A DNA stretch of 64,000 nt from Candidatus Saccharimonadota bacterium (GTDB taxonomy: Bacteria > Patescibacteriota > Saccharimonadia > Saccharimonadales > Saccharimonadaceae): NCBI GenBank assembly GCA_017524405.1, contig JAFWSJ010000014.1, forward strand, positions 65,623-129,622, in the 5' to 3' direction. Below are positions 6,107 through 20,233 of the stretch, one piece after another; positions within the stretch are counted from its first letter, which is position 1, and every line of letters begins with the position of its first letter. Under the pieces are notes generated by a model. The model was not told the origin of the DNA. It did no database searches and saw nothing but the letters and a program-made list of their open reading frames with translations. Made by a program: the position numbers and the translations under genes.

Positions 6107-6223
6107 CTGTGGGCGTCCTTTCCCATTAAAATCATTTGGCTTATGAGTGGTATCCCTCGTCTGCGCGATCTGGGACCTTACCTCTTGCGCCAAAGTGACG
6201 TTTATTTGATAATATACCTCGGT

Positions 6224-6253
6224 ATTATACCATGGGTTATCTTAAATTGTCAA
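6224..6253 (-). promoter_or_regulatory. sigma70-type promoter for rplC and downstream ribosomal genes
   Basis: Minus strand reads TTGACA-N18-TATAAT with TGG directly before the -10. It lies just after the stop of the inserted ORF and about 110 nt before the rplC ATG. Confidence 0.65.
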
Positions 6254-6258
6254 CAAAA

Positions 6259-6738
6259 TTATCTTAAACCACCTTCGCTCAAAAATGGGCCCCAAATTAC
6301 TAGCTCGAATAGCACTCGGCAGGCCGTGCCGTAGATCAATAGCGCTAGCGCGCAGCTCTTATAATACTTGATCGCGTTATCTTCGCTGGGTAGCCGAAAT
6401 TCGCTATGGTTTTCCGGATTTACCATTACCGGAGTCCATTCTTTGCCCGTAGGATATTCCATCTTTGCTTTCTCGTTCGAGATTGAATCAATCGTCGATT
6501 CAGCAATCGTATTCTTCACCTTGATTTTGTAGGTATACCTATATTCCCAACCTGTTATTCTGTCCCTCAGTTTCTCTTTCTTTACATATAGAGCCTTGCC
6601 CGGAACCGTAAAATTTTTCTTACGATTATTAAAGCGAATCCATTTAATTAGCATTTTTATCCCAATCACAAAAAAGACGCCAAAAAACACATTAAAACCA
6701 ATATAGAAAGCTAGGTATAGGAATTTGATCGGATCCAT
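6259..6738 (-). CDS. hypothetical membrane protein (TM - soluble domain - TM) inserted between rpsJ and rplC
   Basis: 159 aa with hydrophobic N-terminal (FLYLAFYIGFNVFFGVFFVIGI) and C-terminal segments. Has its own -10 box. Visibly more A+T-rich than its neighbours. Confidence 0.6.
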   Translation of the reverse strand: MDPIKFLYLAFYIGFNVFFGVFFVIGIKMLIKWIRFNNRKKNFTVPGKALYVKKEKLRDRITGWEYRYTYKIKVKNTIAESTIDSISNEKAKMEYPTGKEWTPVMVNPENHSEFRLPSEDNAIKYYKSCALALLIYGTACRVLFELVIWGPFLSEGGLR

Positions 6739-6755
6739 AAATATTAATTATACCA
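6736..6755 (-). promoter_or_regulatory. extended -10 promoter 8 nt from the ATG (predicted leaderless or near-leaderless)
   Basis: Minus strand reads TGGTATAAT-TAATATTT-ATG with no Shine-Dalgarno. Confidence 0.55.
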
Positions 6756-6758
6756 AAC

Positions 6759-6783
6759 AAAAAATCCCCGATTGCTCGGGGAT
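6759..6783 (-). terminator. intrinsic terminator directly after rpsJ
   Basis: Minus strand reads ATCCCCGAGCAATCGGGGAT followed by TTTTTTG, 15 nt after the rpsJ stop. Confidence 0.7.
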
Positions 6784-6798
6784 ATTCTTGAAGACTAA

Positions 6799-7119
6799 TT
6801 ACATCTTGATTTCGGCGTCGACGCCTGCTGGGAGGGAGAGATTCTGGAGAGAATCAATCGTCTTTGGCGTAGCGTTGATAACGTCGATGAGGCGTTTGTG
6901 GACCTTCATTTCGAAAGCTTCACCACCGGTCTTGTAGACGTGTGGGGACTTCACGACAGTGAAGGAAGAACGCTTGGTTGGAAGAGGCACTGGGCCGCTT
7001 ACCTGAGCACCGGTGCGAATAGCGGTGTCGACGATTTGCTTTGCGCTCTGGTCAATGAGGCGATGATCGTAGGCCTTGAGGCGGATACGAATCTTGAGAC
7101 CTTCGGCTTTTTCTGCCAT
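6799..7119 (-). CDS. rpsJ: 30S ribosomal protein S10
   Basis: 106 aa. [25 protein letters not shown] ... GPVPLPTK. Confidence 0.97.
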
Positions 7120-7215
7120 TTGGAATATATCCTTTCTTTACGACCGCGTAACCTCGGATACCACCTAGACGGGGTGTCCACGAGTTTTTCGCGGCAATTT
7201 AATATGTATGAGATT

Positions 7216-7243
7216 ATTATACAGATTTCGCGCGTTTTGTCAA
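7216..7243 (-). promoter_or_regulatory. consensus sigma70 promoter for rpsJ
   Basis: Minus strand reads TTGACA-N16-TATAAT (TG precedes the -10), about 95 nt upstream of the rpsJ ATG. Confidence 0.7.
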
Positions 7244-7262
7244 TGCTGGAACGCCGCGCTCC

Positions 7263-7291
7263 TTGACTTTTTGGCGCCTATAGTATATAAT
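7263..7291 (+). promoter_or_regulatory. sigma70 promoter for ORFan A, divergent from the rpsJ promoter
   Basis: TTGACT-N17-TATAAT. Confidence 0.65.
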
Positions 7292-7369
7292 GTAGATTTA
7301 GAGTGCGTTAGCGGTAGATATACTTACGTAAGTCTAAAATCTGGATACCGCACTTGTATGGAGGTGTAT

Positions 7370-7921
7370 ATGACCCCTATTACTAAATTTGCTCAGGATT
7401 ATCTGACTATTGAGCATATCAATGGAATTAGTGTTCCTGAACTCATCAACCTTTTAGAGGCAGCCAAGAGGGATAGCAGGTTTTCAATTGTTGAACAGCG
7501 CACTGACGCTTGCCTGGAAGCAACCTATCTTCGCCTCGACGAAGATGAAGACGATAGTATTCCTACGGCTGAAGAAATCGCAGCCATAGAAGCCGAAGAA
7601 GCCGCAGCTGCAGAGGCTGAAGAAACCGCGGCCGAAGAAGCTGAAGAAGTCGAGACGAAAGAACAGGACTATACTGAATATCCGTTCTTCGACGATGATG
7701 GAAATTTAGCTCCTGCTCCGGGTGATCCCGGCGAGCCCATCATGCTCACAATCGAATATCTTCCTAAGAACTTCAAAGATGATAGCGATACTGAGTATGA
7801 AGTCGTCGACTTGATGTCTGATGGATACAATAAGTACCACGTCTTCGACAACAACGACAATGGCCTTTTAATCGACTGCGACAAGGTCGATTATCTTATA
7901 AGCATCTTGAAACTGCTCTAA
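7370..7921 (+). CDS. hypothetical soluble acidic protein (ORFan A; paralog of B)
   Basis: ATG 7370 follows GGAGGTG. The earlier in-frame ATG at 7358 lies inside that SD. Has an Ala/Glu-rich insert. N- and C-terminal motifs are shared with the 8062-8496 product. Confidence 0.6.
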   Translation: MTPITKFAQDYLTIEHINGISVPELINLLEAAKRDSRFSIVEQRTDACLEATYLRLDEDEDDSIPTAEEIAAIEAEEAAAAEAEETAAEEAEEVETKEQDYTEYPFFDDDGNLAPAPGDPGEPIMLTIEYLPKNFKDDSDTEYEVVDLMSDGYNKYHVFDNNDNGLLIDCDKVDYLISILKLL

Positions 7922-7928
7922 AAGCATT

Positions 7929-7957
7929 AAAAACCGTCCGGCTCACCGGGCGGTTTT
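7929..7957 (+). terminator. intrinsic terminator after ORFan A
   Basis: AAACCGTCCGG-CTCA-CCGGGCGGTTTT hairpin plus U-run. Confidence 0.7.
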
Positions 7958-7975
7958 AGCATGCCAAATGTAGTG

Positions 7976-8004
7976 TTGACAACACTCGGATTTTCGTCTA
8001 TAAT
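7976..8004 (+). promoter_or_regulatory. consensus sigma70 promoter for ORFan B
   Basis: TTGACA-N17-TATAAT. Confidence 0.7.
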
Positions 8005-8061
8005 CACATGATACGCTCTGCCTGTATGGGCAGAGTAGTTCATTTCAGGAGGAAATCGCAC

Positions 8062-8496
8062 ATGGCAATCTTTAAACCGCACAAGCAGGAAGATGGTAGT
8101 ACTCGTTTCGTAGCAGACATCTGTCGCAACGTCACAATTCCCGAGGTTTTAGCTTTACTCGGGAGAATGCGCAGTAGCGAAATCGTTCAGGTTGACGCGG
8201 GGGACCTTCGAGCTTCCTACGTCTACAACGACCCCGAGAAGAACGGCATACAGATGACCCCTGTCTTCAAAGAAGACATGTCCGTCATCGCCCCGCCTTC
8301 GAAAGAGGTATCAAACGATGTCACGATTATTATTCGCGATTCGAATTATACAGTATTGAGCCTGAAGGCCAAGAGGTCTTCTTGCCTCGCTACTCCGTTC
8401 GAGACGAACAATAAGCTTCTTACTATCGATTATTCGAAGTTTGACGCACTTATGGATTATCTTACGAAGATCCAGGCCATCGAACAGTTAAAATAA
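8062..8496 (+). CDS. hypothetical soluble protein (ORFan B; paralog of A)
   Basis: ATG 8062 lies 9 nt after CAGGAGG. 144 aa. Motifs VTIPEVLALLGRMRSS and LLTIDYSKFDALMDYL align with A. Confidence 0.6.
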   Translation: MAIFKPHKQEDGSTRFVADICRNVTIPEVLALLGRMRSSEIVQVDAGDLRASYVYNDPEKNGIQMTPVFKEDMSVIAPPSKEVSNDVTIIIRDSNYTVLSLKAKRSSCLATPFETNNKLLTIDYSKFDALMDYLTKIQAIEQLK

Positions 8497-8514
8497 AGCA
8501 ATTGCCTTCCTTCG

Positions 8515-8547
8515 ACTGTCCAGCGTATGCTGGACAGTTATTTTTTT
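8515..8547 (+). terminator. intrinsic terminator after ORFan B
   Basis: ACTGTCCAGC-GTAT-GCTGGACAGT followed by TATTTTTTT. Confidence 0.75.
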
Positions 8548-8633
8548 GTGCTTATGCTCGCAATATAGTATTCCGTAAGATATAGTAATAGCAGTGCTTT
8601 AGGCATGCTATTTTTATTTAGGAGGTTCAAATA

Positions 8634-9269
8634 ATGATTAGAGAAGGCTTTTTGGCGCCGCCAGACCCAATTAACGGCCAGTTCGTCCAGCGCTTTCTCG
8701 AGTTTCATTACGAGAACGGCGCACAAAAAGATGTCGTAGAGCCCTACGAAAGTCACCTGCACTCCCTCAAGGATTTGATCGATATTTTAGAGTTCATATC
8801 AAATGCTTACCAATTAGAGTCCGATGACGAAGATTTATTACTACCTTTTACCAGAAAAGGTACCGCCGCATACCCTTTTACTTTGTCTAATCTTGACGAT
8901 TACGGGCGTGTCGCGGAGCTTTTCAACCTAAAGAACGCCACTTACAGGCGAAATTTAGGAAAAGCGGAGGAAATTTGCTTTTGGATGAAAGACAAGGATT
9001 ATCCGGGCATCATATGCCCCGTAGGTGGCATATCATATAGCGATGACGGTTTCGAGTATATGGGCGAAAGCAGGGCTAGATTGCCTCATTTCAATCTCTG
9101 GTATCGAATCCCTTTGCGGCAACTGAAGTACTTTATTCGTTTTTTCCGACGCTATCGGGACAATATCGAAGAATACTTATTACCGATTAGCTGCGACACT
9201 TATCGCACAATCGGTTACGTGCCCGCCGTGTCATCAATCCTAAAATACGACAATACTCTCCTCGAATGA
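8634..9269 (+). CDS. hypothetical protein (ORFan D)
   Basis: 211 aa. AGGAGG 7 nt upstream. No motif I recognise. Confidence 0.6.
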   Translation: MIREGFLAPPDPINGQFVQRFLEFHYENGAQKDVVEPYESHLHSLKDLIDILEFISNAYQLESDDEDLLLPFTRKGTAAYPFTLSNLDDYGRVAELFNLKNATYRRNLGKAEEICFWMKDKDYPGIICPVGGISYSDDGFEYMGESRARLPHFNLWYRIPLRQLKYFIRFFRRYRDNIEEYLLPISCDTYRTIGYVPAVSSILKYDNTLLE

Positions 9270-9284
9270 GGGGAGTATTCTTTT
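9253..9284 (+). terminator. intrinsic terminator overlapping the ORFan D stop
   Basis: ATACTCTCCTC-GAAT-GAGGGGAGTAT (1 mismatch) followed by TCTTTT. Confidence 0.55.
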
Positions 9285-9289
9285 GCCGA

Positions 9290-9315
9290 CAAAAATCCGC
9301 TCATTAAGAGCGGAT
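9290..9315 (-). terminator. intrinsic terminator of tuf
   Basis: Minus strand reads ATCCGCTC-TTAAT-GAGCGGAT followed by TTTTT, about 20 nt after the tuf stop. Confidence 0.7.
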
Positions 9316-9336
9316 TTCTGCTTACACGAGCGTTAA

Positions 9337-10518
9337 TTACTTAACAATCTTAGTAACAACACCAGAACCGACGGTGCGGCCACCTTCGCGGATAGCGAAG
9401 CGGTCATTGTCGTTCATAGCGATAGGAGCATTGAGCTTGACGCTGAAGGTGACGGTATCACCAGGCATAACAATCTCTTTGTCCTTTGGAAGTTCGACCT
9501 CACCAGTAACATCGGTGGTGCGGAAGTAGAACTGTGGCTTGTAACCGTTGGAGAATGGAGTGTGGCGACCGCCTTCTTCCTTCTTCAAGATGTAAACCTG
9601 GCCCTCAAACTCAGTATGTGGGGTGATGGAACCTGGCTTAGCAATAACCTGACCACGCTCAATCTGCTCGCGCTCAATACCGCGGAGAAGAAGACCAGCG
9701 TTGTCACCTGCCTGACCCTGATCGAGAGTCTTGTGGAAGGCCTCGATACCGGTAACGACAGACTTCTGAGTGTCCTTAAGACCGACGATTTCGACTTCGT
9801 CGTTGATGTGGACAGTACCCTGCTCGATACGACCAGTAGCAACAGTACCACGACCCTTGATGGAGAAGACATCCTCGATTGGCATCAAGAATGGCTTGTC
9901 GAGATCATGCTCTGGAATATCGAAGTATTCGTCCATAGCCTTGACGAGTTCCATGACAGCGTCTTCGTTGGCTGGATCGCCTTCGAGAGCCTTGGTTGCG
10001 GAACCCTTGATGATTGGACAGTTGCGATCGAAACCGTTCTTCTCGAGAAGGTCGCGGATATCTTCCTCGACGAGTTCGACGAGGTCAGGATCAGCGAGGT
10101 CCATCTTGTTCAAGAAGACGATGATCTTTGGAACGTTCACCTGGTGAGCGAGAAGCACGTGCTCGCGGGTCTGTGGAAGTGCACCATCGTTAGCAGCAAC
10201 GACGAGAATAGCACCATCAACCTGAGCAGCACCGGTGATCATGTTCTTAATGTAGTCGGCGTGGCCTGGCATGTCGACGTGAGCGTAGTGACGCTTCTCA
10301 GATTCGTACTCCTGGTGGGAAGTAGCGATGGTAATACCACGAGCCTTTTCCTCTGGAGCGTTGTCAATCTGATCGTAAGCGACTGGCTTGTTGATCTCGG
10401 AAGGAAGTCTCTTCGCGAGAACAGCGGTGATAGCAGCAGTCAAAGTAGTTTTACCGTGGTCAACGTGACCCATGGTACCGACATTGATATGCGGTTTGCT
10501 ACGGTCAAAATCTGCCAT
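9337..10518 (-). CDS. tuf: elongation factor Tu
   Basis: 393 aa. [22 protein letters not shown]-motifs and full-length EF-Tu-like sequence. Confidence 0.99.
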
Positions 10519-10659
10519 AGTTTTATTATTCTCCTTATTATTTTAATAATTTTGGGCACTAATATTAACCAGCCCAAAGCTATATATGCGTATATTTTAT
10601 ACGATTACGCAAATAAAGTAAAGCGTTTTTATCTGTTTTTCTGGCCAAAATATGGGTTG

Positions 10660-10722: not shown

Positions 10723-11292
10723 ATGGCACATTTAGAACTCTACAGCCCTAGCGATTTCTGCGATCCCGAAGTGCAACCTCACGAGCCCGGTTTCGTCATT
10801 GAGTTTACTCCCTCGGATTTTATCGATGAGGCTTGTTACTCATTTTCCGTAAGCAGCACAGACGGTGAAGACTCATATAGCTACGTATTCCTCGATAGTC
10901 TTGAGTCTGTTGCTGAATTTTTATCTGAGTCCGGAGACATTCGTAGAACTCTCGTACGTGCCGGAATTATTTCGAAGGATTTTGACGAAAAGGACCCAAA
11001 GTTCAAGGACGACCTGAACGTCATTACGTTCGTAGTGAACTCCGACTCCGACCCGTCTAAGCAGCTCATCGGGATCTATCTCTACAAGGATTCTATCAGG
11101 TTCATGATTGGCGACGAGCCGCATCTCGTCAGCCCGGCTTCCGTTATCATCGAAATACCAAATGATAAGAGGCTTCTGCTTCGCGTTAAGAATCCTGACG
11201 AGATCGGATACGATCCAATGGTCTTCGAGGTCCAAGACGATGTCTGTTGCGGAAAATGCGAAAATTGCGATTGCGGTTACAGCGGTAGCTAA
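10723..11292 (+). CDS. hypothetical protein with Cys-rich C-terminus (ORFan C)
   Basis: ATG 10723 follows TGGAGGTG. Only the 3' third of the 9562-11292 ORF is used, since the rest is antisense to tuf. Ends in VCCGKCENCDCGYSGS. Confidence 0.55.
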   Translation: MAHLELYSPSDFCDPEVQPHEPGFVIEFTPSDFIDEACYSFSVSSTDGEDSYSYVFLDSLESVAEFLSESGDIRRTLVRAGIISKDFDEKDPKFKDDLNVITFVVNSDSDPSKQLIGIYLYKDSIRFMIGDEPHLVSPASVIIEIPNDKRLLLRVKNPDEIGYDPMVFEVQDDVCCGKCENCDCGYSGS

Positions 11293-11339
11293 GGCATTTA
11301 TAAAGAGCTCGCCGTCTAAGGCGGGCTTTTTGACGCTCT

Positions 11340-11367: not shown

Positions 11368-11419
11368 ATGAAGATATTAAACAGTACGCGTAGCACTGTC
11401 GCACATTAGGAGGTTTACT

Positions 11420-12643
11420 ATGAGCTACCAGAAAAATCCAGTCGAAGTTACTCCAAATTTCTTCGAGACACACGCAAAAGTCGTCACGGCAATCCCGCCG
11501 ACCGAAGTTCCAACAATGGGCGGACGAGGAGGTTTAACAAAAGCTAAACTGAATTCTTCAGACCAGAAGCTGAGTCGCCACATTATCTTTTCGGACGTGG
11601 ACCGATTCATTACCAAGGAGTTGAAAGATATTATCGAGGAAAATAATCTGTTTGCTTTTGGCTATTCATACAACTGCATGAATCAGTCCGAACATGTTCG
11701 TATTATTATTACGAACCTTCGGAAGATTGTGCTGAAATGGTATAGCGAAAGCAATTGGGCATTCCTCAGTATCTCACAGCCTAGCCCCAATAGCTATGTC
11801 GGTATGATCGAGTATAGCAATTGCGGTAAGTATAGGGTCTTTAACTACGGAGATCACTCCATCGTTATCCCCAACCCTAGCGATTCGAAAAAGGATATCT
11901 ACATGTTTGATTGCTCTCGCTTTATGCTTGTCGATAAAGACGTAAAAGTTTGCGAGTATAACAAGGAGAAAGGCCAACGTGTCGCAATTCCTGGCATGGA
12001 ATTCCAGATCGCAGACGACAGAGGCCTACATCTACTTGCAGAAGAGCTTAAATCCTACATCGAACATGTCAAAAAGTCCGGCTCTCCACTAGAGGGCCTT
12101 GCGGGAGAAAGCATCTTTGTTACGCCCGAGAGTTATATTTCTGTAACGAAAGATATGCTCGCCGGCTCTGGCGGATATGTCAATATCTTGCCGGATTACG
12201 AAAAAGTCGGAAGCGATAGCTATCCGAAAAATTGGCCGATCGCGCGCATTATCAAAGATATTTCGCCTTTCGTCCCAGAGGAATTCTCGAAATACTTGAA
12301 AGCGAGAGGGTCGAAGTATTTAACGTTTGCGGTCGACAACGGTGTTCATCCGTCAATGCCGACAAATATCCCTTCCGTTTCGGTCGTCGTAACGCCCCTC
12401 GAATCAGTCAGCGTTGGCATTACCGTCGGTTATCGAGTCATCGTGCAGGCAGCTGAGGCAAAACACGGCGAAGTTAAGTTCTATCGTTGCCCTCTGCTTG
12501 GAGGCTATAGCGTCTATATGAAAGGTAAGTGCTTAGGGCATGACTTCAATGGCTTTTACGACGTTTCTAAGAAAGGTGTCGAAATTAGCAACGATAACGG
12601 TTTTACTATCCTCGAATGCAATATGCGTCGCGGAAATCTTTAG
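11420..12643 (+). CDS. hypothetical protein (ORFan E), apparently two copies of an F-like module
   Basis: 407 aa. AGGAGG 7 nt upstream. Segments FITKELKDIIEENNLFAFGYSY and FVPEEFSKYLKARGSKYLTFAVDN resemble YVPPEICRIIERTGYFAFVEKTY in F. Confidence 0.6.
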   Translation: MSYQKNPVEVTPNFFETHAKVVTAIPPTEVPTMGGRGGLTKAKLNSSDQKLSRHIIFSDVDRFITKELKDIIEENNLFAFGYSYNCMNQSEHVRIIITNLRKIVLKWYSESNWAFLSISQPSPNSYVGMIEYSNCGKYRVFNYGDHSIVIPNPSDSKKDIYMFDCSRFMLVDKDVKVCEYNKEKGQRVAIPGMEFQIADDRGLHLLAEELKSYIEHVKKSGSPLEGLAGESIFVTPESYISVTKDMLAGSGGYVNILPDYEKVGSDSYPKNWPIARIIKDISPFVPEEFSKYLKARGSKYLTFAVDNGVHPSMPTNIPSVSVVVTPLESVSVGITVGYRVIVQAAEAKHGEVKFYRCPLLGGYSVYMKGKCLGHDFNGFYDVSKKGVEISNDNGFTILECNMRRGNL

Positions 12644-12659: not shown

Positions 12660-13250
12660 ATGAAAAAAGACGACAAGATCACTATTAGCCAGAGCATGCT
12701 AAAGAGACATGGCGGAACTTTTAAGCTTCTAGATTGCGGGCCGTTCCAGACGTCGCGATCCAAGGCTTACGTTTCGGATTATACACCCTATGTCCCACCC
12801 GAAATCTGCAGGATCATCGAGAGAACAGGCTATTTCGCTTTCGTAGAGAAGACTTATTATGGCGGCATGGACGGCACGAATCCCGCTCTAACAGCCGTCA
12901 AGCTCGTCATCTGCCCGAAGGGCCGCTGGACAATCGCGAAGCAATACGAAAACGCAGATCCCCAATCCAAGGCTAAGACCGATTATGCCTTATGGGTCTG
13001 GGGCGTCGAAGGAAAACCGGTCTATTTTAGCTTGGAGTTTGACCTGCAACATACTTATTCCGTCTTTTCTTCCGAGGACCTTTCTTGCGGCACATCTAAT
13101 GTACTGCTGCATGGTTGGTATTCTGACGTCAATGAGCATTGTACTCTCGAGGAAGCAATCGAGACGCATAAGGACTTCGAGTTTGAAAATCCGTCCGGAT
13201 ATAACGCACTGCTCTTAGCGCTATATCGCTACGCTTTCACTCATCCGTGA
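12660..13250 (+). CDS. hypothetical protein (ORFan F)
   Basis: ATG 12660 follows AGGAGGTG, 17 nt after the E stop. 196 aa. Confidence 0.6.
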   Translation: MKKDDKITISQSMLKRHGGTFKLLDCGPFQTSRSKAYVSDYTPYVPPEICRIIERTGYFAFVEKTYYGGMDGTNPALTAVKLVICPKGRWTIAKQYENADPQSKAKTDYALWVWGVEGKPVYFSLEFDLQHTYSVFSSEDLSCGTSNVLLHGWYSDVNEHCTLEEAIETHKDFEFENPSGYNALLLALYRYAFTHP

Positions 13251-13257
13251 ACCAATC

Positions 13258-13293
13258 AAAAAATCCACCCCTTTTAACAAGAGGTGGATTTTT
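13258..13293. terminator. bidirectional intrinsic terminator between ORFan F and fusA
   Basis: AAAAA-ATCCACCCC...GAGGTGGAT-TTTT hairpin flanked by an A-run and a T-run, between convergent genes. Confidence 0.7.
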
Positions 13294-13303: not shown

Positions 13304-15397
13304 TTATTTAGCGTTGCGCTTCTCTATGATCTCAGCAGAGATGTTTGGTGGGACTTCCTCGTAACCGAAGAGCTCCATCGTGGAAGCTGCACGGCCCTGG
13401 GACATACCGCGGAGATCCGAAGTATAGCCAAACATGTTTGCTAGAGGCACGAAGCCAGTGATAACCTTGACGCCATTGTCGCGGTCTTCCATCGAATCGA
13501 TGCGGCCACGGCGGCTGTTAAGGTCGCCGATAACATCACCCATGAAGTCTTCTGGGGTGGTGATTTCAATCTTCATAATAGGCTCGAGGAGCACTGGTTT
13601 TGCCTTCTTGATACCTTCGCGAGTTGCAAGGACACCAGCGAGGTGGAATGCGAGCTCGGAGGAGTCGACATCGTGGTAGCTACCATCATAGAGCGTAGCC
13701 TTGACATCGAGCACTGGGTAACCAGCAATAACACCGCCTTCGAGGGTTTCCTTGATACCTTCCATGACTGGCTTGCGATATTCGAGAGGGACAACGCCGC
13801 CCTTGATAGCATCGACGAATTCGAAGCCCTTGCCAGCTTCGTTTGGTTCGAACTTGACCCAAACGTCACCGTACTGACCACGACCACCGGACTGCTTGAT
13901 GTGCTTACCCTGAGCTTCTGCGCTGCCGCGAATAGTCTCACGGTAGGCAACCTGCGGCTCACCAGTGTTACATTCGACGTTAAACTCGCGCTTCAAGCGG
14001 TCAATAATGATATCGAGGTGAAGCTCGCCCATACCGGAAATAATGGTCTGGCCGGTTTCTTCGTCAGTGTGAACACGGAAAGTTGGATCCTCTTCTGCGA
14101 GCTTGCCGAGGCCGATACCCATCTTTTCCTGGTCAGCCTTAGACTTTGGCTCAACAGCAATAGACACTGGAGGATCTGGGAAGTCGATAGACTCGAGATG
14201 AATTGGATGTGCTGGATCGCAGAGCGTGGTACCAGTAGTGGTATCCTTGAGACCTACGACAGCGGCAATATCGCCGGCGCCGACAGACTCGATGTCTTCG
14301 CGCTTGTCTGCAAACATACGAACGAGACGACCAACGCGCTCTTTTTCGCCCGTAGTAGCGTTAAGAATGTAGCTACCGGAGCTGAGCTTACCAGAGTAAA
14401 CGCGAATAAAGATAAGCTTACCGACGAATGGATCGGTTGCAATCTTGAATGCGAGTGCGGTAAGTGGTTCGGATTCATCGCTATGGCGAACGATGTCTTC
14501 GCCGGTCTTAGGATTCTTGCCAAGAATGGCAGGAATATCAGTAGGGGCTGGTAGGAAGTCGGTAACGAGGTCGAGAACCTTCTCAACGATAACACCGCGG
14601 CCATCGCCACCGGTGACTAGGAAGAACTGACCATCGATAACACGCTTGCGTAGAGCTTTCTTGAGTTCGTCCTCAGTAATAGCTTCTTCGCCTTCGCTAA
14701 AGTACTTTTCCATCAATGCTTCGTCTGCCTGAACAGCTTCCTCGACGAGCATAGAGCGATAATTCTTTGCCTTCTCAACCATGTCAGCTGGGATATCACC
14801 CTCAACGAGCTCATGGTCTGCGTAATCCTTGTAGGTGTAGGCCTTCATAGTGATGAGGTCGACAACGCCGCAGATATCCTTCTCGAAGCCGATTGGGAGA
14901 TGAATTGCAAAGGCGTTCTTCGAAAGACGCTTGTGAATAGACTCGAGAGACTTGTAGAAGTCGCCACCGATCTGATTGATCTTGTTAATAAAGCAGACGC
15001 GTGGAACGCCGTACTTATCGGCCTGGCGCCAAACCGTCTCGGACTGAGCCTCGACGCCCATCTTACCATCGAAGACCACGACTGCGCCGTCGAGAACGCG
15101 AAGCGAGCGCTCAACCTCAGCAGTAAAGTCGATGTGTCCCGGGGTGTCGATAATGTTAATCTTGTGACCCTTCCAGTAGGCGGTAACAGCTGCGGAGGTA
15201 ATGGTAATACCACGCTCCTTTTCCTGTTCCATCCAGTCGGTCGTAGCACCACCGGTGTCGCCCTTAACTAGGTCAATTTTGTGTTTGAGACCCGTGCGAT
15301 AAAGAATCGCCTCAGAGGTCGTCGTCTTGCCCGCGTCGATATGCGCGATAATACCGATATTGCGGTACTTGGACAAGTCTGTAACTTTTTCTGCCAT
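13304..15397 (-). CDS. fusA: elongation factor G
   Basis: 697 aa. [23 protein letters not shown]-motifs and full-length EF-G-like sequence. Confidence 0.99.
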
Positions 15398-15462
15398 ATT
15401 TTCCTTTATTATTTAATAATTTTAAGCATTAGTAATAATAGCCCCTAAGTGCTTTGGAGAAT

Positions 15463-15566: not shown

Positions 15567-15589
15567 TAGTTCTTTAGAAAGAAGGTGAT
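15567..15589 (+). repeat. 23-nt leader element, copy 1 (identical copy at 37453-37475)
   Basis: TAGTTCTTTAGAAAGAAGGTGAT. Contains inverted hexamers TTCTTT/AAAGAA and the SD AAGGTG. Confidence 0.9.
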
Positions 15590-15593
15590 TTAT

Positions 15594-16220
15594 TTGGCAA
15601 AAGGACCCCGATTGACCGAAAACAAGGAATTACGAGTCGTTGACCCGCTTCTTAGAGAAAGTGAAACTTTCATGGATTTCTTGGATTCTATAATCAAAAT
15701 CGTCAAGAACGAGTTTGGCGAATTAGGACTTCGATACCCGCGTTACGATTTCGACGCTAATATCCTGATTAGTATTCGCGACATGGGAAATGACTTTCAG
15801 ACCTGCGAGATTTGGCTCTTCCGCGGAAGCAACAACGGAACCAAGCCCCACGAGCATAAGCCACGAAACGACAGCGTCAAATTCTATTTCGTACCGAACC
15901 ACGAAAAGAAGTTCGAGATCGTCCTGAGTATTTGGCTAGAAGAAAGAAAAGGCTGCGACGCACAAGCGGTTGACTTCGGATACGAGCTCGAACCGCGTAT
16001 AATTCGAGCTTATATCAAGAGCTTGCCGGACGTGAGAACATCGAATATCGCAAGATACGATACTGCGTTTAGCGTCATCATGCATCATAGCCCCATTAAA
16101 TTCGAAACCACAACTGAGCTCCACGCGTATGGCGCTAAATATGGCTTCGACTATGAGGGATCGAGCACGCTACTTAAAAACGTACGTATTAGCGTAAATC
16201 AGAAAGGCGGTCGCGTCTAG
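15594..16220 (+). CDS. hypothetical protein (ORFan G)
   Basis: TTG 15594 chosen by analogy with 37479: same leader, and both open M-A-K. In-frame GTG 15585 is the ORF-track alternative. Confidence 0.55.
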   Translation: MAKGPRLTENKELRVVDPLLRESETFMDFLDSIIKIVKNEFGELGLRYPRYDFDANILISIRDMGNDFQTCEIWLFRGSNNGTKPHEHKPRNDSVKFYFVPNHEKKFEIVLSIWLEERKGCDAQAVDFGYELEPRIIRAYIKSLPDVRTSNIARYDTAFSVIMHHSPIKFETTTELHAYGAKYGFDYEGSSTLLKNVRISVNQKGGRV

Positions 16221-16242
16221 TAAAATCACAAGTTTCAGAACG

Positions 16243-16270
16243 GCCCCGCACTTGATGCGGGGCTTGTTTT
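16243..16270 (+). terminator. intrinsic terminator after ORFan G
   Basis: GCCCCGCA-CTTGA-TGCGGGGC followed by TTGTTTT. The hairpin is nearly identical to the one at 17026-17045. Confidence 0.7.
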
Positions 16271-16327
16271 ATGTTATAATACGCGCATCGCAGAGATGCG
16301 AAATCGTTCTTTGAAAGGGGTAACAAC

Positions 16328-17020
16328 ATGCTCAATATTAGACATGATGGCAAAGTTCATACGCTATACAAGTTCGCATCAGATGGCGGACGCATAATGG
16401 ACACGAATGACAGAGATGGCAACTTCGGAAAATGCACAAAAGAGTTTTTAAGTCAGTTCGCAGATGCGGTAGAAAACAACCTCAGGATAATCGAGGAACA
16501 GAAAAACTTGAAGATATTTACCTTCTCGATCATACTCGATCTCCCGGAGGACCCTTTTTCTGTAACCAGATCCTCGATCATGAGAATCTATCGCTATGTT
16601 GATGGAGCCGACAAAGGCGGTTTTCTTCTCTCGACCGTCGATAGAAAAAGATTAGTAATACCGCTCTTTAATGGAGCCAACGATTTCGACAAAGTCCTCA
16701 TCGAACGCATTCAGTGTTCATTAGAAACCGATTGCAACGAACAGGACAAGGTAACTCGCTTGGCTGCAGAATTGGTATTGCGCTCTATCTCGGACGTAAT
16801 GATTGCGCGCCAGCTTGAATCTGAGGTCAGCGTCGCCGTGGCGTATATCATGTGCCGTTGGGACCCATTCCTTATCACGAGCCTCACGAGCGATTACTGC
16901 GCGATTTATGGCTGCGATAAGGTGTTCGACGTACTCAAGGCCTTCGATCTCCTCTGTAACAGAGGCCGAATAAAAATCGACAATTCCGGCAAAAACTTCA
17001 TTGCTTTGAGTTCTGTTTAA
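16328..17020 (+). CDS. hypothetical protein (ORFan H)
   Basis: 230 aa. GAAAGGGG 7 nt upstream and TGTTATAAT at 16272-16280. Confidence 0.6.
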   Translation: MLNIRHDGKVHTLYKFASDGGRIMDTNDRDGNFGKCTKEFLSQFADAVENNLRIIEEQKNLKIFTFSIILDLPEDPFSVTRSSIMRIYRYVDGADKGGFLLSTVDRKRLVIPLFNGANDFDKVLIERIQCSLETDCNEQDKVTRLAAELVLRSISDVMIARQLESEVSVAVAYIMCRWDPFLITSLTSDYCAIYGCDKVFDVLKAFDLLCNRGRIKIDNSGKNFIALSSV

Positions 17021-17025
17021 ATAAT

Positions 17026-17053
17026 GCCCCGCACTTGGTGCGGGGTCATTTTT
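17026..17053. terminator. terminator hairpin shared by convergent ORFan H and the GH13 gene
   Basis: GCCCCGCA-CTTGG-TGCGGGG followed by TCATTTTT. It fills the 31-nt convergent gap. Confidence 0.65.
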
Positions 17054-18470
17054 ATACCTTGATTACAATTTCGCCTTTGTCATCTATAAGCGTTGATTTG
17101 GTTTTGCCCGTAAAGTCGAGGTGGACTTTGTATATCTTACTGTTTAGATGGCGCTCAAAATCGAAGATGCCACCTTTTGTAATCTTATTCACTTTCAGCT
17201 TGCCGTCGGCGATAACTGGATCGCTACGCCAAAGCTCGATGAGGCGCGAGTAGAAGTTTAGAACGGATTCTTCGCGGGCACCCTGAAGGATGTATTCACC
17301 CCAGTTAATCGGCTGACGAGCGTTATCGCGCGACGTGAGCTTGACGATACGCATCGCCTCTTCCTTCGTCTTGCCTTTGCGTCGTAGACGGCGATAAACC
17401 TGCCGTGACTGGATGCCTGGGTAGTCTTGGATATTGTTACTTAGCTCAGCATTCTCAGTCCCGAGTTCCTGCCCCTGATATATACATGGGTTATAGCTCG
17501 GTAGTAGAAACTGAAGCATAGCTAGGATGCGCGGATCGGTATGGAAGCGGCTCGGCGCACGCGGCGCATCATGCGACTCAAAGGCAATCGAAAACTTCGG
17601 CTCAGGCGCCCATTCGGAGAGCTTCTTGAGCCATTTTTTGTATCTAATCGGATAGACTTTATCCTTCTTGCTGAAGAATGAGTCCGCTATATCTAGCGTG
17701 CCGACATTGAAGCTGGCGCTAAATGCCCGTTTTGTCAGCTCGTGAAATTTTCGCTTACTAAAGAATTCGCCCCCGACCGGCTCGGCAATCGTATAACATT
17801 TGCGCTTCGCAAAGAGGCGCTCAAGAATCTTCACGGTCTTTGGCTTTTGGTAATAGTGGAAGAAGCCCGGTAGGCCCGGAATACGCCCCTTTTTTAGATC
17901 CGATTCAGCGAGGACATTAGCTGAGTCGACGCGAAAGCCCGCTGCGCCATTCGCAAGCCAAAAATCCACGATATTTTCGAATTCCTTGACGACCCGAGGA
18001 TTATTGAAGTTTAGATCTGGCTGCGTCTTATCATAGAGGTGAAGATAATACTCGTCTCGCTGGGCGGAATAATCGAAGGCTGGGCCACCAAAGAACGAAC
18101 GCCAGTTGAGCGGGCGGTCGAGCCAAACATAATAGTTCTTATATTCCGGATCATGCTGCTCGGAGAGCTTGAACCATTCGTGCTGGTCGCTAGTATGATT
18201 TAGGACAAGGTCAACCAAGATTCCGATATGATATTTTTCGGCCACTTTTACGAGATGGTGAAAATCCTGCATTTTGCCAAAGCGCGGCTCGATGCGGTAA
18301 TAATTCGATACATCATATCCGCCATCGTTCCATGGGCTCTCAAAAAACGGATTGAGCCAGATGTAGTCTGGATGAAGTTTCTCGGCAATTCGCGGTATAA
18401 TTGCCGCGATATCTCTCAGGTCGCCCACCGAAGAAGGATAGATTTGATAGATAAGCGTATGCTTATTCAT
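17052..18470 (-). CDS. GH13 alpha-glucosidase / oligo-1,6-glucosidase-like enzyme
   Basis: 472 aa. GH13 regions DLVLNHTS, GFRVDSA, AEPVG, FESHDAPR. Confidence 0.9.
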   Translation of the reverse strand: MNKHTLIYQIYPSSVGDLRDIAAIIPRIAEKLHPDYIWLNPFFESPWNDGGYDVSNYYRIEPRFGKMQDFHHLVKVAEKYHIGILVDLVLNHTSDQHEWFKLSEQHDPEYKNYYVWLDRPLNWRSFFGGPAFDYSAQRDEYYLHLYDKTQPDLNFNNPRVVKEFENIVDFWLANGAAGFRVDSANVLAESDLKKGRIPGLPGFFHYYQKPKTVKILERLFAKRKCYTIAEPVGGEFFSKRKFHELTKRAFSASFNVGTLDIADSFFSKKDKVYPIRYKKWLKKLSEWAPEPKFSIAFESHDAPRAPSRFHTDPRILAMLQFLLPSYNPCIYQGQELGTENAELSNNIQDYPGIQSRQVYRRLRRKGKTKEEAMRIVKLTSRDNARQPINWGEYILQGAREESVLNFYSRLIELWRSDPVIADGKLKVNKITKGGIFDFERHLNSKIYKVHLDFTGKTKSTLIDDKGEIVIKV

Positions 18471-18482
18471 ACCTTCATTATA
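18468..18482 (-). promoter_or_regulatory. -10 box 6 nt from the ATG (predicted leaderless GH13 mRNA)
   Basis: Minus strand reads TATAAT-GAAGGT-ATG. Confidence 0.55.
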
Positions 18483-18503
18483 CCCTTTTTAGTTCTACCG
18501 CAG

Positions 18504-18533
18504 CAAAAATCCCGCCGTTATACCACGACGGGA
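18504..18533 (-). terminator. intrinsic terminator after the 18545-19171 gene
   Basis: Minus strand reads ATCCCGTCGT-GGTATA-ACGGCGGGAT (1 mismatch) followed by TTTTT. Confidence 0.65.
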
Positions 18534-18544
18534 TTATAAGAGGC

Positions 18545-19171
18545 CTAACTAGCCGCAGCTCTACGAAACGCCTTACCCGGCATATCAGGGTCAGGAATCT
18601 CGGGATCCATGCCGACATCAACTAAGACGATAATGTCGTCCTCCATCAATTCGTTAAGAACCCGATCGACTTTTTTCGGGTCCGTAATGCCGATTTTTGC
18701 TGCCTGCGCATAAAGCATTGGCTTCGTAAAATAGCCAGTATTCTCGAGGATAAGATAGCGAAGCGCTGCCACAAATGTCCCCTCCGACTTATCAGGCGGC
18801 ATTCCATGAAGAATGCCCCGAATGACGTCGTCGACGAGCTCAGACGCGACAGTTTCGGATCTCAGGTGCTTCTGATCTACCACGGATGCATGGACCTTAA
18901 TCGCATACTCATTGTCTCCAATCATTATGCGCGTCGACCGACAGCCATGTTGGTCCAGCAGATATCCTAGCCTCGCATACAGCGTATAGCTATGCTCTTT
19001 CTTGGGGTTAGGACCTTCAACGGAAACATCAATGCTACCCCTGACGTCCTTTTCGTTATAGTATTCTGCGAATACTTTATCAATTGCATTATCGACGACT
19101 TTGTCGATAGCTTTCAGCCCTCCGCCTTCCGGCGGCGTAACAGGTGTTTTCTTGATGTCTTTCTGTTCCAC
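18545..19171 (-). CDS. hypothetical protein
   Basis: 208 aa with a GTG start after AGAGAGG. No motif I recognise. Confidence 0.55.
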   Translation of the reverse strand: MEQKDIKKTPVTPPEGGGLKAIDKVVDNAIDKVFAEYYNEKDVRGSIDVSVEGPNPKKEHSYTLYARLGYLLDQHGCRSTRIMIGDNEYAIKVHASVVDQKHLRSETVASELVDDVIRGILHGMPPDKSEGTFVAALRYLILENTGYFTKPMLYAQAAKIGITDPKKVDRVLNELMEDDIIVLVDVGMDPEIPDPDMPGKAFRRAAAS

Positions 19172-19249
19172 GTTGATACCTCTCTTTCAAAGAACTTTGC
19201 GTTTTTTGTACAATCTGGCCTCATTATATCAGATTTCGGGCCTTTCCCC

Positions 19250-19278
19250 TTGACAATTTATACCGCTTATGCTATAGC
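19250..19278 (+). promoter_or_regulatory. orphan consensus-like promoter facing the 3' end of rpsG
   Basis: TTGACA-N17-TATAGC with TGC before the -10. No + strand ORF downstream. A terminator hairpin starts about 14 nt after the -10. Confidence 0.45.
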
Positions 19279-19291
19279 TAGCCAACAAAAA

Positions 19292-19324
19292 GACCCAGCT
19301 CCAAATTGGAACTGGGTCATTTTT
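19292..19324. terminator. bidirectional terminator hairpin downstream of rpsG
   Basis: AAAAA-GACCCAGCTCCAAATTGGAACTGGGTC-ATTTTT. Confidence 0.7.
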
Positions 19325-19337
19325 ATTGCGGGATCGA

Positions 19338-19817
19338 TTAGCCGCGGGCAAAATGCGCGAAGGCGCGGTTTGCCTCTGCCATGCGATGGCAATCTTCCTT
19401 CTTCTTGAAGGCTTTGCCAGCCTGGTTGTAAGCATCGACAATCTCGGCCTCGAGGCGCTTGGCATATGGCATGCCGGAGCGTTCGCGGGAAGCCTGGACC
19501 AACCAGCTCATTGCGAAATGCAACTGGCGATGGCCAGCGATTGGGAATGGAATCTGGTAGTTAGCACCACCAACACGGCGGGACTTAACTTCGAAATCTG
19601 GGCTAATATTCTTGATAGCGGTCTCGAGTACCTCAACTGGATTCTCGCTCTTGAGCTTCTTTGCAGCGCCCTCGATTGCGTCGTAAACGGCGCGCTCGGC
19701 GACCTGCTTCTTGCCGTTGAGCATAGATTTGTTAATGAGGCGCTGAACGAGTACGCTCTGGTACTTGCGATCTGGAGAGACCTTGCGCTGAAGGCTAGCA
19801 GTTACTTTACGTGGCAT
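19338..19817 (-). CDS. rpsG: 30S ribosomal protein S7
   Basis: 159 aa. PRKVTASLQRKVSPD, LINKSMLNGKK. Confidence 0.97.
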   Translation of the reverse strand: MPRKVTASLQRKVSPDRKYQSVLVQRLINKSMLNGKKQVAERAVYDAIEGAAKKLKSENPVEVLETAIKNISPDFEVKSRRVGGANYQIPFPIAGHRQLHFAMSWLVQASRERSGMPYAKRLEAEIVDAYNQAGKAFKKKEDCHRMAEANRAFAHFARG

Positions 19818-19819
19818 AA

Positions 19820-20233
19820 TTACTTATCCTCCTTCTTAGCGCCGTACTTAGAACGACCCTGCTTGCGACCCTGGACGCCCTGAAGATCGAGCGTACCGCG
19901 GACGATATGATAGCGGACACCCGGAAGATCTGGAACACGACCACCACGGACGAGCACAACTGCGTGCTCCTGGAGGTTGTGGCCTTCACCACCGATGTAT
20001 GCCCAAACTTCCTGGCCATTGGTAAGGCGCACACGTGCGACCTTGCGGAGAGCGGAGTTTGGTTTCTTTGGAGTCTTGGTAGTAACCTTGACACAGACGC
20101 CGCGCTTGAGCGGAGCAGCCTGCTTGTAATAACGAGTCTTGAGCGTATTCACGATGGAGCCGAGTGCCGGAGCTTTGCTCTTCTTGGCAGCGACTTTGCG
20201 TGGCTTACGCACTAATTGATTGATTGTAGGCAC
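19820..20233 (-). CDS. rpsL: 30S ribosomal protein S12
   Basis: 137 aa with a GTG start. [29 protein letters not shown]. Confidence 0.98.

Follow-up and report, generated by a model that had tools for sequence, protein, structure and literature searches.

A normally contiguous rpsL–rplC translation block split by strain-variable gene islands in a rumen-type Saccharibacteria genome

Introduction

Classic replacement-type islands include the O-antigen locus, which lies between galF and gnd, and the capsule locus of pneumococci, flanked by dexB and aliA. Replacement-type flexible genomic islands have been described by López-Pérez et al. 2014 (PMC4033161). Beside loci for type VII secretion, immunity genes such as esaG (DUF600) and tipC form strings of non-identical paralogues (Garrett et al. 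2022, PMC9484751). Saccharibacteria take up DNA by natural transformation and recombine it through homology arms of about 1 kb (PMC10633639).

Here we describe a locus in a stretch of 64,000 nucleotides from a Candidatus Saccharimonadota bacterium, hereafter the window. In this rumen-type Saccharibacteria genome the rpsL–rplC block, which is normally contiguous, is split into separate transcription units. Record names suggest that the clade to which the window belongs is one of ruminant gut metagenomes.

Layout of the split block

The minus-strand order is rpsL-rpsG, a gene for a hypothetical protein of 208 aa, GH13, fusA, tuf, rpsJ, an ORF for a membrane protein of 159 aa, and rplC. NCBIfam equivalog models match every conserved gene far above cut-off. 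The minus-strand genes are as follows.

5486..6193, minus strand: rplC (L3), NCBIfam TIGR03625, E 8e-71; the public gene call (L081) starts at 6106
6259..6738, minus strand (that of both neighbours): membrane protein of 159 aa between rpsJ and rplC, hydropathy maximum 2.24
6799..7119, minus strand: rpsJ (S10), NCBIfam, E 5e-43
9337..10518, minus strand: tuf (EF-Tu), NCBIfam equivalog
13304..15397, minus strand: fusA (EF-G), TIGR00484, 1034 bits
17052..18470, minus strand: GH13 alpha-glucosidase-type enzyme, NCBIfam
18545..19171, minus strand (as the translation genes): hypothetical protein of 208 aa, a G-family paralogue linked to G through a strain homologue
19338..20233, minus strand: rpsG (19338-19817) and rpsL (19820-20233), NCBIfam, their adjacency kept

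Gaps in the window measure 3.9 kb between rpsG and fusA, 2.8 kb between fusA and tuf, and 0.6 kb between rpsJ and rplC. Plus-strand ORFs lie in three places: A, B and D at 7208-9269, C, E and F at 10723-13250, and G and H at 15585-17020. The initial annotation listed the conserved genes and these eight opposite-strand ORFs, and all were found where it had placed them; the divergent and convergent arrangement that it described is likewise present three times. The 159-aa membrane protein has a weak match to DUF3592 (E 0.016) and varies among strains (87%, 45% and 25% identity). At the rpsG/fusA junction some strains and L001 carry GH13 and others lack it.

That the block is normally contiguous was borne out by an 80-locus comparison, in which the gaps in non-CPR loci are mostly shorter than 300 bp. 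The splitting is not peculiar to this genome: many Saccharibacteria have large inserts at these junctions, and other Patescibacteria have them as well. Among distant Saccharibacteria the junctions hold assorted ordinary genes (nucleotidyltransferase, aminotransferase, ApbE, histidine kinase, APH-type kinase), and the synteny comparison found no set of ordinary genes that occupies the same gaps in all relatives. The rpsG/fusA, fusA/tuf, tuf/rpsJ and rpsJ/rplC junctions are open insertion points in Saccharibacteria, and in the window's clade three junctions hold lineage-specific arrays of soluble cytoplasmic proteins on the opposite strand.

Promoter-like and terminator-like sites

The following sites are consensus matches rather than mapped transcript ends.

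6224..6253, minus strand: rplC promoter-like site, TTGACA-18-TATAAT with TG, 12/12
6764..6783, minus strand: terminator-like hairpin 3' of rpsJ
7216..7243, minus strand: rpsJ promoter-like site, TTGACA-16-TATAAT, 12/12
7263..7291, plus strand: A promoter-like site, 11/12 consensus, back to back with the rpsJ promoter
7976..8004, plus strand: B promoter-like site, 12/12 consensus
8514..8539, plus strand: terminator-like hairpin 3' of B
9290..9318, minus strand: tuf terminator, hairpin and T-tract, read from the sequence and kept between strains
10540..10622, minus strand: tuf leader with promoter-like sites
13257..13293, either strand: bidirectional fusA/F terminator (A-tract, hairpin, T-tract), read from the sequence
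16242..16264, plus strand: terminator 3' of G
17026..17046, either strand: bidirectional H/GH13 terminator
19292..19318, minus strand: strong terminator hairpin (12 pairs) 3' of rpsG
20323..20351, minus strand: rpsL promoter-like site, 10/12 consensus with TG

Consensus promoters score 12/12 5' of rpsJ, rplC and B, 11/12 for A, and 10/12 for rpsL, E and H. Hairpins with T-tracts follow rpsG, rpsJ, tuf, B and G, and bidirectional terminators separate the convergent pairs fusA/F and H/GH13. The terminator of G recurs 783 nt away as a 41-nt repeat 3' of H, and a 53-nt stretch of the tuf leader is 72% identical to the fusA leader. The rpsJ promoter-like site falls within an upstream stretch of ~125-135 bp that can be aligned across strains; homology to other strains reaches 9270-9289 on the terminator side of tuf and about 10606-10643 on its leader side. 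Every translation gene retains a private conserved promoter or leader and a terminator, and every array gene looks, from its predicted signals, like a transcription unit of its own. Promoter-like and terminator-like sites occur at each conserved gene or gene pair, which agrees with the initial description of a cluster cut into separately promoted pieces. Consensus matches underlie its stronger statement, that each gene would have gained its own promoter and terminator, and indirect support comes from published work in cultured Saccharibacteria, where the rpsJ and tuf promoters are strong and act independently (PMC10633639).

Island genes and protein families

7370..7921, plus strand: A, AB family, 183 aa in the public call (ORF from 7208), acidic low-complexity insert
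8062..8496, plus strand: B, 144 aa, AB family, paralogue of A
8634..9269, plus strand: D, 211 aa, D family
10723..11292, plus strand: C, 189 aa, C family, conserved C-terminal CxxCxxCxC cluster, annotated in GenBank
11420..12643, plus strand: E (E407), 407 aa, tandem double of the EF-family domain, two EF-profile domain matches
12660..13250, plus strand: F, 196 aa (public call), one EF-family domain, dN/dS 0.14
15594..16220, plus strand: G, 208 aa, G family, dN/dS 0.10
16328..17020, plus strand: H, 230 or 207 aa, dN/dS 0.17

All eight ORFs have been deposited as called genes, and their 90% clusters hold 6-18 members. GGAGG-type ribosome-binding sites lie 5-9 nt 5' of the starts of A to F, and dN/dS against near-identical strains is 0.10-0.25 (0.25 for A against L088, 0.20 for E). 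With conservation between strains, these features mark the ORFs as coding rather than as spacer, the alternative that had been raised at the outset. Averaged dN/dS is below 1 in the island genes and positive selection was not detected; by these ratios, genes within one island type are under purifying selection. Island GC (45-49%) is slightly below that of flanking genes (50-55%). The initial observation that the eight proteins are soluble and carry no recognized motif was confirmed: their pI is 4.0-7.6 (4.05 for A), and none has a match in Pfam, NCBIfam or PADLOC. In PHROGs the only match is a weak one of A through its acidic low-complexity stretch.

The proteins are not independent ORFans, as they had been called. 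E consists of two tandem copies of the F domain, B is a paralogue of A, and the hypothetical protein at 18545-19171 is kin to G: it matches a 222-aa protein of L084 at E 1e-10, and the latter matches the G profile at E 9e-9. Related strains carry divergent homologues of every island ORF but H, for which the only relatives found are at least 94% identical. Homologues of D at the same junction are 163-180 aa long in L084, L085 and L087 and truncated to 102 aa in L086. C has a homologue of about 31-32% identity in L087 that retains every cysteine of the CxxCxxCxC cluster, and a member in L097 (E 2e-16). G has a 62% homologue (P0030), a paralogue in L096 (E 6e-6) and a member at the same junction in L097 (E 8e-69).

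For the EF family, 1.84 billion representatives were searched exhaustively with HMMER, and only 25 relatives were found; the D, AB and C families were traced within the fetched loci. Across 26 EF sequences there is no invariant column, and the single nearly invariant residue is a phenylalanine. An AF2 model of an EF member is confident (pLDDT 95.6, pTM 0.91). A Foldseek search with this predicted structure, as initially proposed, gave no match in PDB (best E 0.17) or BFVD (best E 0.19), with TM about 0.2 or lower. The best E in a sequence search of PDB was 0.47, which is not significant, and none of 50,697 phage records was matched by E407 in tblastn. On the model, which is of high confidence, the EF fold has no counterpart among the solved or viral structures searched.

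Variation among strains

The layout recurs in >15 independent assemblies, and opposite orientation is retained in nearly all strains. All contigs that offer context (L081-L089, L093 and L097-L100) have an occupied fusA/tuf junction, and tuf/rpsJ is occupied in L081-L088 and L090. Families are tied to junctions: EF and C to fusA/tuf, D and AB to tuf/rpsJ, and G to rpsG/fusA. In L097 to L100, too, the fusA/tuf gap holds EF and C members, and L097 also has its G member 5' of fusA.

Content changes between close relatives at these fixed sites. Ten contigs with 100% identical EF-Tu differ in gene sets at both tuf junctions, and the tuf/rpsJ junction of L082 holds only a nucleotidyltransferase. L088 apart, contigs align with the window by blastn only at the conserved genes, and HSPs end 45-65 bp past the stop and about 90-135 bp before the start of these genes. 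Beside flanking proteins that are 99-100% identical, those of the islands are either unrelated or 23-43% identical. For example, L087 has 99.3% identical EF-G and 100% identical EF-Tu, alongside an E homologue of equal length (40%), an F homologue (30%) and its C homologue in changed order; in L083 the homologues of A and B are 43% and 30% identical. Synonymous sites are saturated in the island genes, against a dS of 0.03-0.21 in the flanks. A control region around trxB is, in two relatives, collinear and alignable at 79-95% nucleotide identity, and most of its orthologues are 84-99% identical in protein. Island content is replaced between close relatives, and gene order and copy number also shift. 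EF-domain copy number per array ranges from 2 to 8. The L093 array has eight tandem EF paralogues between tuf and fusA that are 20-45% identical mutually, one L085 copy is split by a frameshift, and a single cassette type recurs at 100% identity in L086 and at 88% in the L093 array.

Of about 107 differences from the near-clonal L088, 99 lie in two tracts: 12250-13999 covers the fusA 3' end, F and the last part of E, and 7000-7999 covers the rpsJ upstream region and A. Outside both tracts about 5.7 kb hold 0-1 differences, and per-gene dS is mosaic. This clustering in two tracts at gene/island junctions indicates recombination.

Origin and function of the islands

We consider it probable that these are replacement-type hypervariable islands set between ultra-conserved anchors, possibly encoding binding proteins related to conflict. 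The islands would behave as replacement-type flexible genomic islands, with near-invariant translation genes acting as homology arms. DNA taken up by naturally competent cells may lead to swapping of whole cassettes or alleles by homologous recombination, and tandem duplication and loss within arrays may widen the variation. Replacement could, however, be imitated with little ongoing exchange if lineages had lost different members of a large ancestral array. Function is the weakest step. The confident EF fold, the near lack of conserved polar residues and deep divergence between types fit binding proteins and do not fit enzymes or housekeeping factors. EF proteins may be non-enzymatic binders with diversifying surfaces; in conflicts with hosts, competitors or phages they would be candidates for immunity factors, inhibitors or specificity factors. 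NCBIfam, gene records and PADLOC reveal no toxin, secretion-system or defence genes adjoining the islands. Within 10 kb on each side are translation genes, GH13, a nucleotidyltransferase, a purA-like gene and ABC-F, and no toxin domain is on record for genes in that range.

The tie between family and junction might instead reflect a functional link to the adjoining translation gene. Island proteins would then act on or with EF-G, EF-Tu and S10, protecting these targets from translation-directed toxins or antibiotics or regulating them, or expression would be inversely coupled to strong translation promoters through divergent promoters or antisense read-through. Such a link, which we regard as unlikely, could account for the confinement of each family to one junction in every contig with enough context, for the retained opposite orientation, and for island promoters that stand back to back with those of rpsJ, tuf and fusA. 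Yet bidirectional terminators part the convergent gene pairs, some strains lack a given family at its junction (L082, for example), and a conserved partner is hard to reconcile with island proteins at 23-43% identity beside 100% identical EF-Tu. About as improbable is that the proteins are effectors secreted or injected into or onto the host bacterium of the epibiont and diversified in an arms race. Strain-variable, paralogous, lineage-restricted families and an EF fold without detectable analogue are typical of effector repertoires, and about 6 kb away the window encodes a protein in which T4SS-pilin and C39-like peptidase domains are present. However, signal peptides and transmembrane segments were not seen in the eight island ORFs, their products showed no known effector motif or secretion signal, and the islands do not adjoin any secretion system.

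Neutral birth-and-death of dispensable genes, with paralogues lost differentially from a large ancestral array and no strong or common function, has a similarly small chance of being correct. With a promoter already in place for every translation gene, the junctions would simply tolerate inserts, and the variable array size, the frameshifted L085 copy and the unrelated genes at these junctions in more distant Saccharibacteria are in keeping with this. The low dN/dS nevertheless indicates constraint, one cassette type is found in different arrays, recombination tracts are centred on gene/island junctions, and families persist at their own junctions in every strain examined. An explanation of the islands as integron cassettes, as debris of prophages or IS elements, as assembly chimeras or as non-coding spacer with chance ORFs is very improbable. 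Their slightly lower GC and the weak PHROG match of A might be read that way, but this reading is contradicted: the repeat search gave only terminator and leader repeats, with no attC-like or terminal repeats and no IS ends; the genes within 10 kb on each side have no integrase or transposase Pfam domain; PADLOC gave no match and E407 none among phage records; and the layout recurs across assemblies with coding signatures. The initial term 'cassette', taken in its mobile-element sense, is not supported.

A wider version of the replacement-island reading, tentative at best, is that the islands form an unrecognized diversity locus, with arrays of new-fold binding proteins for immunity, host specificity or anti-defence. 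Their seat in the str-S10 block would follow because near-invariant genes and natural competence render cassettes exchangeable. If so, homologous recombination could exchange cassettes even across diverged species, and the most conserved genes of the cell would be universal recombination arms for its least conserved ones.

Comparison with known systems

In gene identity, order and orientation the block matches canonical str and S10 operons. Unlike in those operons, rpsG/fusA, fusA/tuf and rpsJ/rplC, which are normally intra-operon, are here large gaps with terminators and promoters, including predicted terminator-like hairpins 3' of rpsG, fusA and tuf. The islands resemble esaG and tipC arrays in having tandem divergent paralogues of about 150-200 aa that are cytoplasmic, with strain-variable copy number (2 to 8 EF domains) and recombination that contributes to repertoire turnover. 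They differ in that no cognate toxin or secretion locus adjoins them, their proteins have no sequence or fold similarity to known immunity or defence families (Pfam, NCBIfam, PADLOC, PDB, BFVD), and their paralogues are far more divergent (20-45%), with no conserved DNA blocks seen among them. With replacement-type islands they share a site that is the same in all strains and is flanked by conserved core genes, content that differs or is deeply divergent in close relatives with identity falling sharply at the borders, and exchange through the flanks by homologous recombination, as indicated by tracts and mosaic dS. In contrast to those islands, the islands encode small soluble cytoplasmic proteins of lineage-specific families and do not consist of envelope glycan genes, the anchors belong to the cell's most highly conserved protein genes and lie in what is usually the str operon, and three or four sites follow in succession within 14 kb.

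Gene order and transcription signals

The minus-strand order of rpsL, rpsG, fusA, tuf, rpsJ and rplC proposed in the initial annotation is matched by the ORF listing and by NCBIfam scans of the window. The eight plus-strand ORFs (A–H) lie, as claimed, in three gaps of this block, where they form the arrays termed islands here.

Features of the block (window coordinates, strand, identity; basis)
5486–6193, minus, rplC; ORF listing, NCBIfam
6259–6738, minus, membrane ORF of 159 aa; ORF listing
6799–7119, minus, rpsJ; ORF listing, NCBIfam
7208–9269, plus, ORFs A, B and D; gap ORFs
9337–10518, minus, tuf; ORF listing, NCBIfam
10723–13250, plus, ORFs C, E and F; gap ORFs
13304–15397, minus, fusA; ORF listing, NCBIfam
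15585–17020, plus, ORFs G and H; gap ORFs
17052–18470, minus, GH13 gene; ORF listing, NCBIfam
18545–19171, minus, hypothetical protein of 208 aa; ORF listing
19338–19817, minus, rpsG; ORF listing, NCBIfam
19820–20233, minus, rpsL; ORF listing, NCBIfam

All eight products are soluble (pI 4.0–7.6), and their description as motif-less holds: Pfam, NCBIfam, PHROGs and PADLOC scans gave no usable match. Ribosome-binding sites of GGAGG type occur 5–9 nt upstream of the A–F starts chosen by public gene callers. The exact A–H proteins are already in public databases, where their 90% clusters have 6–18 members each. Within A, periodic 9- and 15-nt repeats (7567–7676) encode an Ala/Glu-rich acidic tract that is the source of the sole PHROG match of A and is absent from the homologue in strain locus L083.

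Each conserved gene had been credited with its own promoter and terminator; consensus promoter and hairpin sites are indeed found, as predictions from consensus matches and sequence reading. Predicted sigma-70 sites match the consensus at 12/12 positions upstream of rpsJ, rplC and B, at 11/12 upstream of A and at 10/12 upstream of rpsL, E and H. Downstream of rpsG, rpsJ, B and G there is a terminator hairpin, and the space between H and the GH13 gene has a bidirectional one. From a reading of the sequence, fusA and F also share a bidirectional terminator, and tuf is followed by one of its own. Independent tuf and rpsJ promoters are established in the phylum because Wang et al. 2023 (PMC10633639) expressed reporter genes from the tuf and rpsJ promoters, and with the tuf terminator, of cultured Saccharibacteria.

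The tuf (10527–10579) and fusA (15397–15449) leaders have in common a 53-nt AT-rich stretch (72% identity) ending at the ribosome-binding site, which may serve both genes as a promoter or translation-enhancer element. The 159-aa membrane ORF, the GH13 gene, a 333-aa ORF and an ABC-F gene lack a Shine-Dalgarno sequence and have, only ~6–9 nt before the ATG, a −10-like element (TATAAT, or TGCTAAAAT plus an extended TG; at 6739–6763, 18471–18495, 21360–21384 and 23445–23469, respectively), which suggests leaderless or near-leaderless mRNAs; island genes, unlike these, carry strong GGAGG sites.

Variation among close relatives

A look-up of the exact EF-Tu protein yields ten contigs, of which one (L081) is the window's DNA itself (100% over 17.5 kb) and another (L088) matches it at 98.6%. 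For the remaining eight, homology to the window at the DNA level covers only conserved genes (tuf 96–99%, fusA 86–96%, rpsJ onward 85–95%) and ends 45–65 bp past stop codons and ~90–135 bp ahead of start codons, and nearly all eight carry Pfam-less opposite-strand ORFs (98–512 aa) in the fusA/tuf and tuf/rpsJ gaps. Contig L087 has flanking EF-G and EF-Tu at 99.3% and 100% identity and island homologues of E, F and C at 40%, 30% and 31%, in changed order; in L083, EF-Tu and S10 are 100% identical and the homologues of B and A 30% and 43%. Flanking genes have dS values of 0.03–0.21, and island synonymous sites are saturated. Gap content therefore differs between close relatives, rather than consisting of the same ordinary genes throughout.

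The 333-aa membrane-anchored protein upstream of rpsL (20358–21359) is also hypervariable, with a counterpart in L082 that is 22.5% identical beside an S12 that is 97.8% identical; upstream of rpsL, the window has a purA-like gene and a 143-aa ORF, and L082 an HD_4 protein gene and a 197-aa ORF. Some genes are interrupted in the metagenome assemblies: fusA is divided in two in L083 (635–2649), rplD and rplB are truncated or split in L082 (15405–17213), and an EF-family island cassette is in two parts in L085 (2693–3224). These may be frameshifts or assembly errors, and the L085 cassette could be a true pseudogene.

Between closely related strains, F, E and A have dN/dS values of 0.14, 0.20 and 0.25 against L088, and G, H and the 208-aa hypothetical have values of 0.10, 0.17 and 0.21 against L095, where GH13 gives 0.04 and translation genes 0.00–0.02. 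At 0.10–0.25 for A, E, F, G and H, these ratios indicate that the island ORFs are real, constrained genes and not non-coding spacer.

The window and L088 are nearly clonal, with 0–1 differences over ~5.7 of 7.9 kb of alignment, and differ mainly in two tracts: 64 differences lie in 12250–13999, which takes in the 3' end of fusA, F and the last part of E, and 35 lie in 7000–7999 (the rpsJ upstream region and A). Both tracts are best read as imports that span a conserved gene and the adjoining island gene. Natural competence, and recombination with ~1-kb arms, are known from Saccharibacteria (PMC10633639). Import tracts, such competence and the sharp homology borders together support a process in which cassettes would be exchanged through conserved flanks by homologous recombination. 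An integron or mobile-element origin of the islands was considered and rejected.

Island protein families and predicted fold

The initial finding is real, yet the islands are more structured than described: the ORFs form families tied to position and are not eight unrelated ORFans, with E a double of the F domain, A and B paralogues, and G a paralogue of the 208-aa hypothetical. The EF family has a domain of ~185 aa, present once in F (196 aa) and as a tandem double in E (407 aa). Its members fill the fusA/tuf gap in L083–L087, L089, L093 and L097–L100, and L093 (EF-Tu 98.9% and EF-G 96.1% identical to the window) has eight tandem paralogues with mutual identities of 20–45%. One cassette type recurs in L086 (100% identity) and in the L093 array (88%), and one L085 copy is interrupted by a frameshift. 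Members of family C share a conserved CxxCxxCxC cluster at the C-terminus and occur together with the double-domain type of E, in the window, L087 and L097. Families D and AB are located at tuf/rpsJ; profile-profile comparison found no mutual relation among EF, D and AB. Family G includes G, a 62% homologue and a second paralogue in L096, and a member upstream of fusA in L097; the same-strand hypothetical (18545–19171) joins it through a 222-aa protein of L084. The only relatives found for H are near-identical, and its sole link to G, to which it could not be connected by sequence, is a duplicated terminator at 783-nt spacing.

PDB sequence-profile searches returned only chance-level matches for EF, D, AB and C. 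A likeness of family D to the Phytophthora RxLR effector PSR2 (E 0.003) was rejected, as no stretch passed on its own.

The EF family is tiny: five clusters were found by a word-indexed search of 5.8 billion proteins, and 25 matches by an exhaustive HMMER search of 1.84 billion representatives; the matches are singles of 170–214 aa or doubles of 401–407 aa, with only two outliers (95 and 1011 aa). The fold search suggested for predicted structures was run for an EF member. A first AlphaFold2 model of F from 8 sequences (pLDDT 63) gave an uninformative search and was replaced by a model of a typical member from a 26-sequence alignment (pLDDT 95.6, pTM 0.91), which has a beta-rich core, several helices and a long C-terminal helix. 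Foldseek found no match to it in PDB or BFVD (best E values 0.17 and 0.19, respectively; TM no higher than about 0.2), and PDB sequence searches gave no match; against these two databases the predicted structure can provisionally be termed a new fold. We infer that EF proteins would have a stable scaffold whose surfaces vary, and would resemble binding proteins more than enzymes, because the 26-sequence alignment has zero invariant columns and its sole near-invariant residue is a phenylalanine.

Distribution of the split block and other variable sites

An EF-G scan with one genome per species gave 80 loci. The block had been called normally contiguous, which is true of non-CPR genomes in this set, where the rpsG/fusA, fusA/tuf, tuf/rpsJ and rpsJ/rplC junctions are mostly <300 bp; it does not follow that the split is peculiar to this genome, as the same junctions are often 0.5–5.6 kb in Saccharibacteria. 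Because such gaps recur there and inserts also occur in some other Patescibacteria, block splitting is a property of the whole lineage and not a quirk of the window genome. Inserts in distant Saccharibacteria are a mixed, largely same-strand set that includes a nucleotidyltransferase, a Band7/SHOCT protein, a class-V aminotransferase, ApbE, a ferric-reductase-like protein, a CHASE histidine kinase, an APH-type kinase and unknowns. Since tblastn and profile searches gave no relatives of A–H in any of the 80 species-level loci, including the closest of them (L001), with 94% identical EF-G, the island families are, on sequence searches, evidently confined to a narrow clade. The arrangement is undescribed in the literature searched.

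A same-strand nucleotidyltransferase of 407–420 aa (PF00483) occupies the tuf/rpsJ gap in L082, L084, L085, L086, L090 and the distant L001; it is absent from L083 and from the window and L088, which have A and B instead, and may be an older occupant of this junction. A divergent adenylosuccinate-synthase-like gene (window 21941–23416; NCBIfam E 1e-12, far below the family cut-off) has a 32% homologue in L001 (19675–20880), downstream of rpsJ. The S10 operon is broken further in L001, because this homologue takes the expected place of rplC, which was not found within 4.7 kb.

The surroundings of trxB served as a control, with a small sample of two close relatives (L101 and L102). Both are collinear and alignable with the window at 79–95% nucleotide identity, most orthologues are 84–99% identical at the protein level, and the exceptions are a tRNA-adjacent 178-aa ORF, a 235-aa ORF missing in L102 and a polysaccharide cluster beyond 49.7 kb. 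Hypervariability is therefore, for the two relatives compared, concentrated in hot spots, str-S10 junctions among them. The 178-aa ORF (43293–43829) lies in a 719-bp segment (43158–43876) directly after tRNA-Thr (43078–43152) that is absent from both relatives and looks like a strain-specific insertion beside a tRNA gene. The low-GC (39–42%) polysaccharide cluster (48700–57600), where homology to L101 ends at 49680, carries genes for DUF4422, LicD, GT2, an 849-aa GT1 and O-antigen-ligase fusion, a nitroreductase, a flippase and a pyruvyl transferase, and looks like a replacement island of the classical glycan type. Elsewhere, 25789–26991 encodes a 400-aa protein with T4SS-pilin and Peptidase_C39-like domains between Pfam-less ORFs, and 33912–37382 two adjoining DUF6020 paralogues (617 and 538 aa).

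Significance and comparison with known systems

Saccharibacteria, like other Patescibacteria, live as epibionts with reduced genomes and, to our knowledge, few of the factors that determine how they interact with hosts have been identified. Prime candidates for such factors are loci that are fully strain-variable beside frozen surroundings, and for those described here there are now family definitions, coordinates and a confidently predicted structure. The layout suggests diversity genes parked between ultra-conserved genes and reachable by recombination across species boundaries. The genes tuf, fusA and rpsJ are in use as phylogenetic and binning markers and as promoter sources, and contigs of this clade are liable to break, or to differ, precisely at str-S10 junctions. 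Linear DNA can now be used to transform members of the phylum, which makes the islands testable.

The genome architecture and mode of variation of the islands are well supported, and we rate them as replacement-type hypervariable islands or paralogue arrays of unknown families in the most conserved gene block. Exchange through conserved flanks is also the process described for replacement-type flexible genomic islands (PMC4033161). For function, the closest analogy is with the immunity genes esaG and tipC, which occur as rows of non-identical paralogues and evolve through recombination (PMC9484751). When checked, the islands showed neither of two defining features of such arrays, affiliation with a recognised immunity family and a linked toxin or secretion locus, so membership in this class is not claimed; by analogy, the islands resemble strings of immunity paralogues.
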